A stretch of DNA of 64,000 nucleotides from Escherichia coli (lineage in GTDB: Bacteria > Pseudomonadota > Gammaproteobacteria > Enterobacterales > Enterobacteriaceae), in NCBI RefSeq assembly GCF_045037415.1, contig NZ_CP173439.1. One strand, given 5' to 3'. Under the pieces are notes generated by a model. It saw nothing but the letters and a program-made list of their open reading frames with translations, was not told the origin of the DNA and did no database searches. This document shows, piece after piece, positions 41,965-51,092 of this stretch. Positions within the stretch are counted from its first letter, which is position 1. Each line of letters opens with the position of its first letter. The translations under genes were made by a program, and so were the position numbers.

Positions 41965-42317
41965 TTTTCAGCCCCCATCATCTGTTGAGTTTCGGGACCC
42001 GCCGCAACGACGTGAAGCGCGGTTTGCGAAACGGCGTTGCGCCTTACATCCCGGCGGCCTTTTGCCGGGATGCCAGGAGCGCAGGCCACGGCGCGACAGA
42101 GGCGGCGCGACCGGAACGGTCGCTGCAAGCCCGGGGTTTTCACGCATCGGACCGTAGCGACAGCCCGAAACCGCGCCAGCGGGTTCGGCGGAGACTGGCA
42201 GGTGCGCCAGCAGCTGCCAGTCGGAGTCGGGCCTGACGACCGGATGCCGCCAGGCAGCCGGGAGCCGAAGGTGCGCCCGGCAGACAGGACAACACTGCAG
42301 TAGTCAGAATCAGAGCA
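41965..42317 (+). repeat. Structured GC-rich leading-region repeat, copy 1 (short form; ssi/Frpo-like)
   Basis: About 350 bp near-identical to the outer parts of copies at 47113 and 50479; many hairpins (CCCGGCGGCCTTTTGCCGGG). Confidence 0.7.
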
Positions 42318-44232: not shown

Positions 44233-46191
44233 TCAGGCGGCATCAGCCAGGTTATCGGTACGTTCAGTGGCATCCGTCTGTGGGCGTGGTGCACACATCC
44301 AGCCAGGCACCCAGCGGTTGTCTTTCATGTGGAACTCTGCATGTTCAGCCGCATCGCCTTTCTTCATCTTCTCCGCGTCCCGTGCAGCACCGGACAGTCC
44401 GGCCTCATTCAGGGCTGCGATAATCTGCGGCTTTTTCAGGTGTCCGAAGAAGTTTGCTTTTGTCGGCTGCCACCAGTCGCGCATGTGGAATCCGATAGCG
44501 GTTTCCAGCGGGTCAAGCGGACTGCGTGACGTGTGACCACACTCGCGGGTCTGAACGCCGTGGATGCTGCACGCAGTGCAGAAACTGAGCAGGGATAACA
44601 GCACCTCCTGGCTGAGTGACAGGAACGTCGTCATGTCCCGTGACCATCCCTCCGGCAACAGGGCGACCAAACGTGCTTTTTCTGCCATCAGCGCCATGAA
44701 TGCGGCACCTTCCTTCCCTGACGGCGCATCGCTGGTCAGCGAATAATGTTTACATTCCAGGCTGATTTGTGCTGGTTTACTGTACGCCCCGCTGCCAAAC
44801 ACATTCAGGCAGAGCGTCCATGCCAGCAGTGCCAGGGATTTGTCCGGCTGCTGCATCAGTGCTGCCTGGACTGCCAGCGTGCGCTCTGAGGACATTTTCG
44901 TCAGCAGTGGCAGACTGATTTCCTCCACGGAGGCTTTCTCCTGCACCTGTTCCGTGTGGTCAGCGTCGTCAGCCACATCATCCTCACTGCGTAACTGCAC
45001 ACCACGCTGGACACATACGTTTCCATAACGCCAGGACACCACCACGCCACTTCCGGCACGCATCTCCGGCGTCCACGCCCTGACCTTCGCCATGCAGTCA
45101 ATCAGCTTCATTTCTGCTTCCAGCAGGTCGGATTCCTCACACTGGTTTTCCAGCGCATCGTAACGTGCCATCAGTTCGTTCAGGCGTTCTTCTTCTGCCT
45201 CCGTCAGCACCGCTTCCGGCTCCGGCAGACTGCGGTATGTTCCGGCATCCTCACGGCACTCACCAACGGCCTCCATGCGTCCGGCACACCATCTCCAGCC
45301 CTCGGCTTCCCGAAGGTGTTCAGCAACAGCCTGGAGTTTTTCCAGCAGGGCAGCATCGAGCGCAACACAGTCCACATAGCCACCCTCGTCGTCGCTGAAC
45401 AAATCGGTGCGCAGTTCATCTGGCGAGAAGGCATCAGCCCCCACAAAGCGGAATTTAGTGTTCCCCACCACCGCCACTTCACTTTCGGTCACCAGACGAC
45501 GAATGGTCTGTACTTCCGGTTTTCCGCCCCATCCCGACTGACAGGCAGCTTCAAACACCTGCACCTGACGCGCGGTGTCGTTCTCCAGCGCCAGCGCCTG
45601 ACAGTGCTCTGTGGTGATGCGGTCTTCTGCCAGCGCATCGAGGATGACAGGCGCAAGGTCTGCCAGTTTCAGCATTCGCTGAACGTGGCGGGGTGAATAG
45701 CCCAGCAAATCACCGATTTGTGCAGGCGTTTTGCCTTCCTGCGCCATTGCACGGAATCCGGCAATCTGTTCGGCAGGGTGCATATCCCGACGATGACCGT
45801 TTTCAGTCATTGATGCGGCAGTCGCCAGTTCCTGCGGAATAACCTTCACGCGGACAGGCCAGTCAGCCGGAAGGATGTTGCGCTCTGCCAGCATGTTGAG
45901 TGCTGCCAGTCGGCGACCGCCTGCGGCGACACCGTAACGGTCACCTGGCAGGGCATGAACAACCAGATTCTGCAGCAGGCCGACGCCCTGAATGGACTCT
46001 GCCAGTTCGCTGACGGACTCCGCAGAATACGGCACCGTGCGCACATTCAGCGGTGACTTAATCAGCGAGGCCAGCGGCACGCTCACTTCAGCCGTCTCCG
46101 CCAGCAGGGCCGACAGGACTGTTTCCTGCGTTTTTGCAGGTTTACGGCTGGATTTACGCTCCGTTTTTACCTTAGACTCTGTAACTGACAT
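44233..46191 (-). CDS. ParB-like nuclease domain protein (leading region, 652 aa)
   Basis: N-terminal ParB/Srx-like domain; AGGAG RBS before ATG 46191. Confidence 0.75.
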   Translation of the reverse strand: MSVTESKVKTERKSSRKPAKTQETVLSALLAETAEVSVPLASLIKSPLNVRTVPYSAESVSELAESIQGVGLLQNLVVHALPGDRYGVAAGGRRLAALNMLAERNILPADWPVRVKVIPQELATAASMTENGHRRDMHPAEQIAGFRAMAQEGKTPAQIGDLLGYSPRHVQRMLKLADLAPVILDALAEDRITTEHCQALALENDTARQVQVFEAACQSGWGGKPEVQTIRRLVTESEVAVVGNTKFRFVGADAFSPDELRTDLFSDDEGGYVDCVALDAALLEKLQAVAEHLREAEGWRWCAGRMEAVGECREDAGTYRSLPEPEAVLTEAEEERLNELMARYDALENQCEESDLLEAEMKLIDCMAKVRAWTPEMRAGSGVVVSWRYGNVCVQRGVQLRSEDDVADDADHTEQVQEKASVEEISLPLLTKMSSERTLAVQAALMQQPDKSLALLAWTLCLNVFGSGAYSKPAQISLECKHYSLTSDAPSGKEGAAFMALMAEKARLVALLPEGWSRDMTTFLSLSQEVLLSLLSFCTACSIHGVQTRECGHTSRSPLDPLETAIGFHMRDWWQPTKANFFGHLKKPQIIAALNEAGLSGAARDAEKMKKGDAAEHAEFHMKDNRWVPGWMCAPRPQTDATERTDNLADAA

Positions 46192-46255
46192 ATATTTCTC
46201 CTTTGACCGGGGTGGTTGTATGTCTGCCGGACGTGATCCCCGTCCGGCACCTCTC

Positions 46256-47740
<1,485 letters not shown>

Positions 47741-47757
47741 GCAGGAAAAAGAAGAGC

Positions 47758-47813
47758 AGTAGCAGTAGCAGTAGCAGTAGCAGTAGCAGTAGCAGTAGCA
47801 GTAGCAGTAGCAG
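47758..47813 (+). repeat. Hexanucleotide tandem repeat (GCAGTA)n, about 9 units
   Basis: Perfect AGCAGT/GCAGTA repeats; not present at the equivalent position of copies 1 and 3. Confidence 0.9.
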
Positions 47814-47992
47814 GAACAACAACATCATCAGTAACAGACAAATGACAGGTCTGAAAAGACAGAAGCCCCCATCAGAACGTCCGCGTAATGAAAGGGGCGG
47901 CGCGTGAGCGCAGCCCCTTTCAGCGCCACCGGCGCGCGGTCTTTTCCCGGCGCGGACAGACGGGCATTTATCCTCCCGCCAGCCCTGTGTCA

Positions 47993-48556
47993 TCAGGCAC
48001 GCAAACGAATAATCATCGTCGGGACATCGGTATAAGCAAACGTGCCGCGCGGCAGCTCCTCGCGGACGTCAGAAAACGGTAACAGCTTCTCCTGCTGGCG
48101 TGGCCCGTTGAGACAGACGGCAACCAGAACGCCCCCCGGACGCAACAGGGAAAAAGCCCGCAGGATATGCCGGATATCCTGCCCGTGACTGAACGGCGGA
48201 TTCATAATGATCCGGCTGTAATACTGCACCGGCTGCCATTCCATGAAGTCGCCACACTGAACCCTGACACCGTTAAAATTTTCCCGCAGATACCGGACCA
48301 GCCCGCTGTTAATCTCCACCGCATCACACATGGCCTCCGGCGCGGTATCCCGAATAGCCCGCAGTATGGCCCCGGTGCCGGCAGAGGGTTCCAGAATGTG
48401 ATCACGGTTGCTGATTTCCGCCAGCGTCACCAGGCGATCACAGACCGGGGCAGGAGTCACAAAAAGCTGAGATTCAGCCCGGATTTCAGCAACCGGCGCG
48501 GCGTTATCCAGCCTTGCGCGCATCAGCCGGATACGTTCTCTTAACTGACTGTGCAT
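47993..48556 (-). CDS. Orphan SAM-dependent DNA adenine methyltransferase-like protein
   Basis: SAM-binding LEPSAGTGAI and NPPF catalytic motif; no adjacent restriction gene. Confidence 0.7.
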   Translation of the reverse strand: MHSQLRERIRLMRARLDNAAPVAEIRAESQLFVTPAPVCDRLVTLAEISNRDHILEPSAGTGAILRAIRDTAPEAMCDAVEINSGLVRYLRENFNGVRVQCGDFMEWQPVQYYSRIIMNPPFSHGQDIRHILRAFSLLRPGGVLVAVCLNGPRQQEKLLPFSDVREELPRGTFAYTDVPTMIIRLRA

Positions 48557-48602
48557 GTCATTATCTCCGTCATCCCCCGGGGATTTCCCGGGGGGATATA
48601 CC

Positions 48603-49964
48603 TTATTTCTGTGGGATTTCCGTGATTTTCATGTCGGTGATATACACATTCACCAGACGGAAATTATTGTCCATTGTGCGGCGGTAGCGGTATGCCCCGT
48701 GGTCTTCTGCTTCTTCCACACTGCGCACGGCCTTACAGTCCCGGGGCAGGGCGGCCCACTGCGCCTTTGTCATTTCCCGGAAACCTTCCCCCGGATAGTT
48801 GACTACCGGCGGACGCTTCGCGGCCTGACTGGCGACGGCAGCCTCTTCTGCCGATGGTGCTTTGTAGTCCGTGATGCGATCGGGCGTCACTTTCATCGTG
48901 CCGCTGTACCCGAGAAAACTGTAATTTGGCGTTGTGACTGAACTCACCGCCCCGTTGCTTTTGTTCACGCGGATGATAGTCAGCCACTCGCCCCGGCTGA
49001 AAACCTGTCCGCCCGGCTCAAAATCCTGTGTCCGGGTAACCACGCCGCCGCTTTCGTCCAACATGGCACGCTCATAGATCAGGCGGTTCTGATAGTGGTT
49101 AACCCAGCGTTGCTGATGCTGAATCTGCCGTTCATGACAGCGGATCGCAATTTCGCGGGCCTGCTCCGTGGTGATGATGTCATCATCCAGGGCCGACCAT
49201 AACGACCGGCTCCCTTCATACTGGCTTTTTTCTGCCGGGCGCGGATACGTATCCAGCGGGAAACAGGCGCTGATATGGTCATGACTGCTGATGAGTTTTG
49301 CCATATTCAGATCCAGCGATTCAGCCCGCCACATCGTCAGATATTTCTGCGACTGTGCGATGGTCTTTTCAGCCTTGCGCAAATCAGCTTCGATTTTTTT
49401 GATACGACGCCAGCGAACGTCCGGGCGTTCTTTATACTTCGCGTGAAGCAGTGCCGACCGCGCCCGTTCTTCCCAGTATTCCGCACGTTCAAAGAGCATC
49501 ACGGCACGTTTCATGCCGTTTTCAATACGCTGCGCATCACGACGGGCGCGGCGTTCGCTGTGATGCCCCACAAGAATGGGCTGACCGGGCGGGATCATCG
49601 CGGCCAGTCTTTCCACTTCATCAAGTGCCTGTGCGGATTCACTGGCCCGCTTTCCGCTGTATCCGGTAAACCGCTCCGCCCGTGCTTCCTGACGTTCAGC
49701 GAGCGTGCTGTCTTCATCCTCAATCTCTCCGGCAAGTGAGAGGAGCACGTCTTCCCGGCCCGGTGTCCAGGCTGGCGCGACAAACAGCGCCTGTCTGGGT
49801 GCCCAGCGAAAACCGGCATCATGCACTTTTTTATACGTTTCCTGGTCAAGACGTGACGCGGCATACAGGCGCAGTTTGTTGTCATCCGGTGAGTAGGTCG
49901 CGCGGTACATCTGCACAGGGCTGGCGGCTTCCGGGGCGGTCATGGTGATTGCTGCTAATGTCAT
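48603..49964 (-). CDS. Leading-region protein of unknown function (453 aa)
   Basis: Long ORF with Arg/Glu-rich coiled-coil-like centre; no recognised catalytic motif. Confidence 0.5.
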   Translation of the reverse strand: MTLAAITMTAPEAASPVQMYRATYSPDDNKLRLYAASRLDQETYKKVHDAGFRWAPRQALFVAPAWTPGREDVLLSLAGEIEDEDSTLAERQEARAERFTGYSGKRASESAQALDEVERLAAMIPPGQPILVGHHSERRARRDAQRIENGMKRAVMLFERAEYWEERARSALLHAKYKERPDVRWRRIKKIEADLRKAEKTIAQSQKYLTMWRAESLDLNMAKLISSHDHISACFPLDTYPRPAEKSQYEGSRSLWSALDDDIITTEQAREIAIRCHERQIQHQQRWVNHYQNRLIYERAMLDESGGVVTRTQDFEPGGQVFSRGEWLTIIRVNKSNGAVSSVTTPNYSFLGYSGTMKVTPDRITDYKAPSAEEAAVASQAAKRPPVVNYPGEGFREMTKAQWAALPRDCKAVRSVEEAEDHGAYRYRRTMDNNFRLVNVYITDMKITEIPQK

Positions 49965-50015
49965 AAAATGTTCTCCTTCCGTCTGTTGCCGCCCCTCGCG
50001 GGGCGGCTCACCTCA

Positions 50016-50246: not shown

Positions 50247-50478
50247 AAATGAAACTCCTTATGACAAATTGGTTAATAATGCCGTCAAAATTGGTTGCGC
50301 AATTCTTACGGCGTGGATTAAGCAGGTCCCTGACCTGCTTTTTTCATATCTGCGTCTGACGTTCTCCGGTGTTTTCCTCCTTCTGTTCCTGCGTTCTCAT
50401 TACCTGCCAGCCGGATGACTGACAGAACAAATAAATGCATATTGCCGGAGCCTGAAATAAATCCTGATTTTTAAAGAA

Positions 50479-51092
50479 CATCACCCGTTGAGTTTCGGGA
50501 GCCGCGGTTTTGACGTTTCGCGGGAACCTGCTGCTGTATTCCCTGTGGTATGAACTTCACCCGTTTGAGAACCTTCGCCGCAAGGGGCATCACTGCCACG
50601 GCCTGACGCACCTGTCCTGGGCAGAACGCAAAATTTTTTACCGGGTTTTGGGTAAAAAATTTTGTGGGCTGTTCATTTACCCTGGACAGTCAGTGCGGCA
50701 GGTTGTGGCTGTATCAGCCCCCGGCGACAGGGACTCATACGGGTGTGTGGCACCGGCAGGCAATGAGCAGGGACCCGCCGCAACGACGGAGAGCGCGTGC
50801 GCGAAACGGCGTTGCCCCTTACATCCCGGCGGCCTTTTGCCGGGATGCCGGGAGCGCAGGCCACGGCGCGACAAGGGTGGCGCGACCGGAACGGTCGCTG
50901 CAAGCCCGGGGTTTTCACGCATCGGACCGTAGCGACAGCCCGAAACCGCGCCAGCGGGTTCGGCGGAGACTGGCGGGTGCGCCAGCAGCTGCCTGTCGGA
51001 GTCGGGCCTGACGACCGGATGCCGCCAGGCAGCCGGGAGCCGAAGGTGCGCCCGGCAGACAGAACAACACTGCAGTAGTCAGAATCAGAGCA
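50479..51092 (+). repeat. Structured GC-rich leading-region repeat, copy 3 (long form; ssi/Frpo-like)
   Basis: About 615 bp near-identical to copy 2. Confidence 0.7.

Follow-up and report, generated by a model that had tools for sequence, protein, structure and literature searches.

The locus studied here raises the question of why a perfect hexanucleotide repeat stands beside the single-strand promoter of ssb on an Escherichia coli plasmid, and whether the number of its units has any consequence for the neighbouring genes. The stretch of DNA that was analysed, 64,000 nucleotides in length, is referred to as the window. The reading that is favoured below, with a probability of about 0.85, is that of a non-coding VNTR which varies by slippage and is probably near neutral.

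Sequence and plasmid setting of the tract

Direct reading of the plus strand gave nine GCAGTA units (47756-47809) followed by GCAG (47810-47813). Tandem Repeats Finder delimited the same array at 47755-47813 with a period of 6, 9.8 copies, 100% matches and no indels; its score of 118 was the highest of the 18 arrays in the 64-kb window. With about 59 perfectly periodic bases, a chance origin is out of question. On the gene-sense strand the tract reads (TACTGC)n. The preliminary description of this DNA had reported a perfect tract of about nine GCAGTA units at 47758-47813, which was right to within 2-3 bases. Two other arrays in the window are imperfect, one at 22670-22721 (period 18, 2.8 copies, 82% matches) and one at 63483-63526 (period 15, 3.0 copies, 90% matches). 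The features around the hexamer tract are collected in Table 1.

Table 1. Features around the hexanucleotide tract, with positions in the window
Feature	Position	Strand	Details and basis
Plasmid ssb, downstream of Frpo2	46551-47090/47129	-	PGAP coordinates from NZ_OZ043947
Frpo2-type single-strand promoter repeat, copy 2 of 3	47130-47745	+	Alignment, folding, position upstream of ssb
80-aa ORF reading the tract as (Ala-Thr)n	47599-47841	-	Overlaps the conserved Frpo2 3' extension; judged not a gene
86-aa ORF reading the tract as poly-Leu	47733-47993	-	ATG overlaps the methyltransferase stop (ATGA); judged not a gene
Perfect hexanucleotide VNTR	47755-47813		(GCAGTA)9 + GCAG on the + strand; direct reading and Tandem Repeats Finder
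Trinucleotide repeats GAA(CAA)2(CAT)2CAG, adjoining the hexamer tract	47814-47831		Vary among relatives
VNTR-37 forward-primer equivalent site	47875-47901	-	2 mismatches in the window's plasmid
G+C-rich hairpin just downstream of the methyltransferase stop	47890-47921		Alignment; paired in MFE and centroid structures
Class I SAM-dependent methyltransferase gene, 187 aa	47993-48556	-	Stop 47993-47995

Over 5,000 plasmid records match the region; the majority are conjugative IncF plasmids from E. coli, Klebsiella, Salmonella and Shigella. The record NZ_OZ043947 is identical to the window over 47300-48100, and its minus-strand order is psiB, a ParB-like gene, DUF905, ssb, the tract, the class I SAM-dependent methyltransferase and DUF3560, with an antirestriction gene further on. 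The region around the tract is a plasmid leading region. The records closest to the window's plasmid are conjugative IncFIA/IncFIC plasmids, and the locus sits on a backbone of this kind. Comparison with F placed oriT on the low-coordinate side of the region; from the gene order and the standard model of F transfer, the plus strand would thus be the one transferred and would serve as template for these genes.

The window contains three copies of a structured repeat about 600 nt long, with cores at 41994-42293, 47417-47716 and 50769-51068. Copy 2 was predicted to form, as single-stranded DNA, a very long hairpin at about 47120-47570 (z = -8.6), which is followed by a conserved 3' extension ending about 10 nt before the hexamer tract. 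Copy 2 corresponds by position to Frpo2, which PMC9849209 describes as lying upstream of ssb. In F, Frpo2 is the single-strand promoter that drives early ssb-psiB expression and is required for early expression of ssb, and deletion of either Frpo2 or ssb had no measurable effect on F transfer (PMC9849209). The single-strand DNA promoters of F-like and IncI plasmids, named Frpo or ssi, are credited to Masai and Arai (1997), cited in PMC9849209 and PMC11541004. Three Frpo-type copies are found in the window (41994-42293, 47130-47745 and 50470-51090), and F has been described with two (Frpo1, Frpo2). The third copy of the window precedes a small ORF, DUF3560 and the methyltransferase gene.

Alignment of the three copies showed that their homology stops near 47745 and that the hexamer tract follows copy 2 only. 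The uniqueness of the tract to copy 2, with no repeat at the equivalent place in copies 1 and 3, had been claimed beforehand and is hereby confirmed, as is its location between the methyltransferase stop (180 nt away) and the structured repeat upstream of ssb, on which the ORFs and the repeat alignment agree. No hexamer tract was detected in F (52-67 kb examined), though F has Frpo2. In F, the interval that separates the antirestriction region from ssb also lacks the DUF3560-methyltransferase module, as would be expected if recombination between Frpo copies had removed or introduced it. Since F lacks both the methyltransferase module and the tract, the latter travels with the 3' flank of the methyltransferase gene and not with Frpo2.

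The sequences on the methyltransferase side of the tract were inspected as well. The adjoining trinucleotide repeats were found in 92 loci as GAACAACAACATCATCAG (50 loci), GAACAACAACATCAG (37), GAACATCATCAG (4) and GAACAACATCAG (1). The (CAA)n(CAT)n runs are therefore also variable, and the hypervariable zone is wider than the hexamer tract itself. All three Frpo copies are accompanied by the G+C-rich hairpin (GAAAGGGGC...GCCCCTTTC), which is conserved some 150-190 nt 3' of each on the transferred strand; as it has no T-run on either strand, it is no obvious intrinsic terminator. The methyltransferase displays an NPPF motif, and its NCBIfam matches, all far below cut-off, were to Erm/KsgA-type rRNA adenine methyltransferases and to PrmC/HemK. 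DUF3560 (48603-49964) gave no NCBIfam match.

Length variation and correspondence with the typing locus VNTR-37

The length of the tract was compared in seven complete plasmids, 78 loci from metagenome contigs, one locus from a species-representative genome and six pO157 loci. The metagenome and species-representative loci were retrieved with an exact pattern on the left junction of the tract, and CAGTAG units were counted. Across 94 related loci the tract had 1-18 units (mean 5.6, Nei diversity 0.886), a range that covers relatives with at least one unit, as this was needed by the search pattern. The window has nine units, and the other complete plasmids have 4, 6, 9, 13, 15 and 18; the metagenome contigs span 1 to 13 units, in assemblies that may under-represent long alleles. 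Both main flank types among the metagenome contigs are variable, with 1-13 units for G/G and 1-8 units for A/A.

A comparison over a 6-kb backbone, aimed at near-identical plasmids that differ only at the tract, gave no record with more than 99% identity. The three Frpo copies confuse joined alignments over such a distance, and groups of loci with identical 1,200-nt right flanks were used instead. Four of these groups contained differing unit counts, namely [3,6,7,7], [4,9], [6,8] and [7,8]. The tract thus changes faster than point substitutions accumulate.

Among the 94 loci the tract was pure in all except one, in which the interrupted allele CAGTAG CAGTG CAGTAG... lacks one base in the second unit (SKEI01005639.1). 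Purity is therefore not absolute. Its near constancy fits a high turnover and is also compatible with selection that retains a repeat. The 291 nt surrounding the tract were found at a coverage of at least 80% in 1,906 of 5,426 complete E. coli genomes, and the hexamer tract persists across divergent lineages and hosts. A small number of the matching places in complete E. coli genomes (64 of 6,851) are chromosomal and not on plasmids, so that some strains may carry an integrated F-like leading region. The sole match among species-representative genomes is an 11.4-kb contig with this enterobacterial IncF leading-region locus, of two units, in a metagenome-assembled genome labelled 'uncultured Oscillibacter sp.' (CAAGJQ010000034.1). 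This label most likely reflects a binning contaminant.

The search of E. coli genomes also revealed that the alignment starts in pO157 plasmids of O157:H7 step by six bases. Six pO157 loci of this clonal lineage were counted and gave 5, 6, 6, 7, 7 and 8 units. MLVA schemes for E. coli O157 include a locus with a 6-bp unit, O157-37 or VNTR-37 (PMC3768571, PMC3777172); both papers credit the O157-n loci to Keys et al. (2005). The PulseNet primers for VNTR-37 (PMC8461963; forward GCCGCCCCTTACATTACGCGGACATTC, reverse GCAGGAGAACAACAAAACAGACAGTAATCAGAGCAGC) gave exact matches flanking the tract in each of the six pO157 loci, and the resulting amplicons of 172-190 bp fall within the published range of 157-274 bp. 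The unit counts in pO157 (5-8) also agree with the published O157-37 alleles of 5-9, with 7 in EDL933, 6-9 in other strains and clade medians of 5-7.

The correspondence between O157-37 and the tract of the window rests on the common 6-bp unit (in the CAGTAG register), the same immediate left flank (AAAAAGAAGA) and the same right flank in its whole length through the methyltransferase gene. The two differ in that O157-37 sits on pO157, which the window's plasmid is not, and the alleles of IncF plasmids at large (1-18) range more widely than in O157. The 6-bp unit and the variation by whole units among isolates were both observed for the tract, the passage rate being taken from PMC3777172. On this basis the tract of the window is taken as the counterpart of the established MLVA marker O157-37/VNTR-37, a link that the preliminary description had not made, and the finding is in this respect already known. 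The standard VNTR-37 PCR would probably fail on the window's plasmid, since the forward site carries mismatches (Table 1) and the reverse site is absent; the sequence further to the left here is the standard Frpo2 extension and not the diverged version of pO157. The primers of VNTR-36, the other, 7-bp O157 locus, found nothing in the window at up to 4 mismatches.

The preliminary description had proposed that the tract undergoes slipped-strand length variation. This is strongly supported by the 1-18 units among 94 loci, the differences between loci with identical flanks and the 5-8 units in pO157, with slippage as the presumed cause. The comparison across relatives that it had suggested showed that the unit number is not identical in them, and length change within a culture had already been measured by published serial passage of O157:H7 at this very locus (PMC3777172). 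In these parallel passages O157-37 mutated at 8.5e-5 mutations per generation, in all cases by whole units.

Coding, regulatory and binding-site readings

The tract can be read through without a stop in three minus-strand and two plus-strand frames, and PGAP annotates the 86-aa and 80-aa ORFs as hypothetical proteins; in pO157 the annotated ORF is instead a poly-Ser one on the plus strand. The repeat could accordingly encode a variable homopolymeric segment of a small protein, either poly-Leu, (Ala-Thr)n or poly-Ser on the opposite strand. The start of the 86-aa ORF within the methyltransferase stop (ATGA) would suit such a protein, as would a 6-nt unit that keeps any frame open. The conservation of these frames argues against it. 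In 21 of 53 testable loci (~40%), the coupled 86-aa ORF is cut short ahead of the tract by a 1-nt deletion. In the 182-nt spacer, 52 unique haplotypes displayed 45 variable sites, distributed 19/14/12 over the codon positions of the 86-aa ORF, unlike the methyltransferase control with its clear third-position excess (27/24/59); the spacer between tract and methyltransferase gene also carries indels of 1 nt and 10 nt. Neither the 86-aa nor the 80-aa ORF gave an NCBIfam match, the annotated strand and frame of the tract ORFs change between records and lineages, and a hydrophobic helix whose length would range from about 4 to about 40 leucines fits poorly with a conserved function. Neither the conserved frame nor the codon-position bias of a protein-coding amino-acid repeat was thus found for the tract. 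A coding function is considered highly improbable, and the tract ORFs are very likely annotation artefacts of a stop-free repeat.

The tract may alternatively act as a tunable spacer, in which the unit number would set the distance between the upstream methyltransferase/hairpin region and the Frpo2 element on the incoming single strand or on a read-through transcript. It would then modulate early (zygotic) ssb-psiB expression or priming, and would represent a plasmid contingency locus. Several properties are in line with such a role, namely the start of the tract close behind the conserved Frpo2 extension, its purine-rich and seemingly unstructured nature on the presumed transferred strand, its hypervariability and the need for Frpo2 in early ssb expression in F (PMC9849209). 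The position of the tract speaks against it. In gene orientation the tract lies upstream of Frpo2 and would be transcribed only by read-through from the methyltransferase operon and not from Frpo2. Compared with the Frpo/ssi promoters, it stands directly 3' of a Frpo2-type element on the same presumed transferred strand, but outside the conserved repeat and the hairpin; it is neither part of the hairpin nor conserved between copies, being absent from copies 1 and 3 and from F, whose Frpo2 is functional. Moreover, the non-mobilizable pO157 retains the tract, which still varies there.

In order to evaluate the influence of unit number on the fold, the strand 47100-47990 was refolded with 0 to 25 units using DNA parameters, as naked DNA free of SSB and RNA polymerase. 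In the centroid fold the tract is unpaired and located about 185 nt 3' of the Frpo2 hairpin. The predicted minimum free energy varied by no more than 0.4 kcal/mol over 0-9 units. Over the first 480 nt the predicted fold was identical for 0-9 units and differed at 10 positions for 12-25 units, and the mean pairing probability predicted for the Frpo2 hairpin was 0.74 throughout 0-25 units. No pairing partner for the tract was found on the transferred strand, where 45000-50000 contains a single plus-strand TACTGC, and no 9-mer complement of the tract exists anywhere in the window. A scan of 47050-48050 for promoters detected no sigma-70-like site, which also tells against a tunable spacer, and a terminator scan of the same interval gave two terminator-like sites against 1.3 expected by chance. 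The sole match of a permissive Rfam 15 scan over 46400-48700 was a chance hit to a microRNA model (20.8 bits, gathering score 80). The hexamer tract is not mentioned in the Frpo and leading-region literature that was consulted (including PMC9849209), and no publication linking a hexanucleotide repeat with the leading region was found.

An effect of the tract on the adjacent element had been suggested earlier, both on its spacing and on its structure. The first part stands, as the distance to the upstream gene changes trivially with every unit; the second is not supported, as the predicted hairpin is the same for 0-9 units and nearly so up to 25. The further suggestion that unit number could alter ssb expression is unsupported, in view of the hairpin prediction, the lack of a complement and the fact that Frpo2 was tested in F without a tract. 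As deletion of Frpo2 or ssb had no measurable effect on F transfer (PMC9849209), any selectable effect is expected to be small. A tunable spacer is altogether quite unlikely, and that the unit number is a heritable, rapidly reversible tuner of leading-region function is given a still smaller chance, as no result points to it. If this were true, the length would alter read-through from the methyltransferase operon or the traffic of polymerase or SSB into the promoter hairpin, and plasmid populations would carry a spread of early ssb-psiB expression levels.

The GCAGTA/TACTGC units could also form an array of binding sites, to which a leading-region protein, for instance, might attach on single-stranded DNA. 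Their regular direct repetition and their location in the leading region would suit such an array, and the consensus half of the LexA box, CAGTA/TACTG, is contained in the unit. The copy number goes down to 1, neither F nor the other Frpo copies have the tract, and no known family of binding sites was matched, which makes a binding array barely credible. A LexA box in particular was rejected, since the units are all direct repeats and give no CTG-N10-CAG palindrome on either strand. A priming site for DnaG, which starts at a template CTG, was rejected as well, because the transferred strand carries CAG and not CTG.

Origin of the variation and consequences for typing and annotation

The favoured reading, a slippage-driven and non-coding VNTR, places the tract in the spacer between the 3' end of the leading-region methyltransferase gene and Frpo2, the single-strand promoter of ssb. 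The variation by whole units is observed; the 6-nt units would be gained and lost when strands slip and mispair in the course of DNA synthesis. MutS recognises six-base loops poorly, and such tracts are therefore unstable even in repair-proficient E. coli. With a unit divisible by three, and with no conserved ORF, predicted promoter or predicted hairpin covering the tract, a change in length neither switches a frame nor refolds a neighbour. The variation is thus probably close to neutral. As a speculation, synthesis of the complementary strand might stall at the Frpo2 hairpin of about 450 nt, just past the tract, and so favour slippage. Against this idea, copies 1 and 3 have the same hairpin and no tract, and the tract of the non-mobilizable pO157 varies nonetheless.

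Simple-sequence contingency loci, the phase-variable genes of Haemophilus, Neisseria, Helicobacter and other bacteria, likewise consist of a pure short-unit repeat with slippage far above the point-mutation rate. The present tract differs from them by a unit that is a multiple of three and by a location outside conserved ORFs and a predicted -35/-10 spacer, so that no on/off or graded switch is apparent. The features of a phase-variable contingency locus were accordingly not recovered, given the 6-nt unit, the unconserved ORFs and the lack of a promoter-like site in 47050-48050. The biological importance of the tract is judged to be small, and the prior for a spacing effect on Frpo2 low.

What is added here to the knowledge on VNTR-37 is its context. 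The marker is the immediate neighbour of the Frpo2 single-strand promoter, it forms part of a methyltransferase module absent from F, and it is widespread in IncF plasmids with alleles of 1-18 units, against a narrower range in O157. VNTR-37 is consequently not specific to pO157, but part of a leading-region module that roughly one in three complete E. coli genomes carries and that also occurs in plasmids of Klebsiella, Salmonella and Shigella. With such a distribution the tract could serve as a fast-evolving marker for tracking IncF plasmids. Conversely, a change in the VNTR-37 allele of a strain may reflect plasmid exchange instead of slippage.

The repeat has also consequences for gene annotation, as pipelines register a further 'hypothetical protein' accession whenever the allele length or the frame differs. 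In the six pO157 loci (at about 1184-1675 in locus coordinates) the plus-strand poly-Ser 'hypothetical protein' has received a separate RefSeq accession per tract length, namely WP_001304227.1, WP_001358896.1, WP_001451816.1 and WP_001492078.1. The minus-strand poly-Leu and (Ala-Thr)n ORFs of IncF plasmids likewise get accessions by allele. These tract-ORF accessions are probably artefacts that multiply with the number of alleles.
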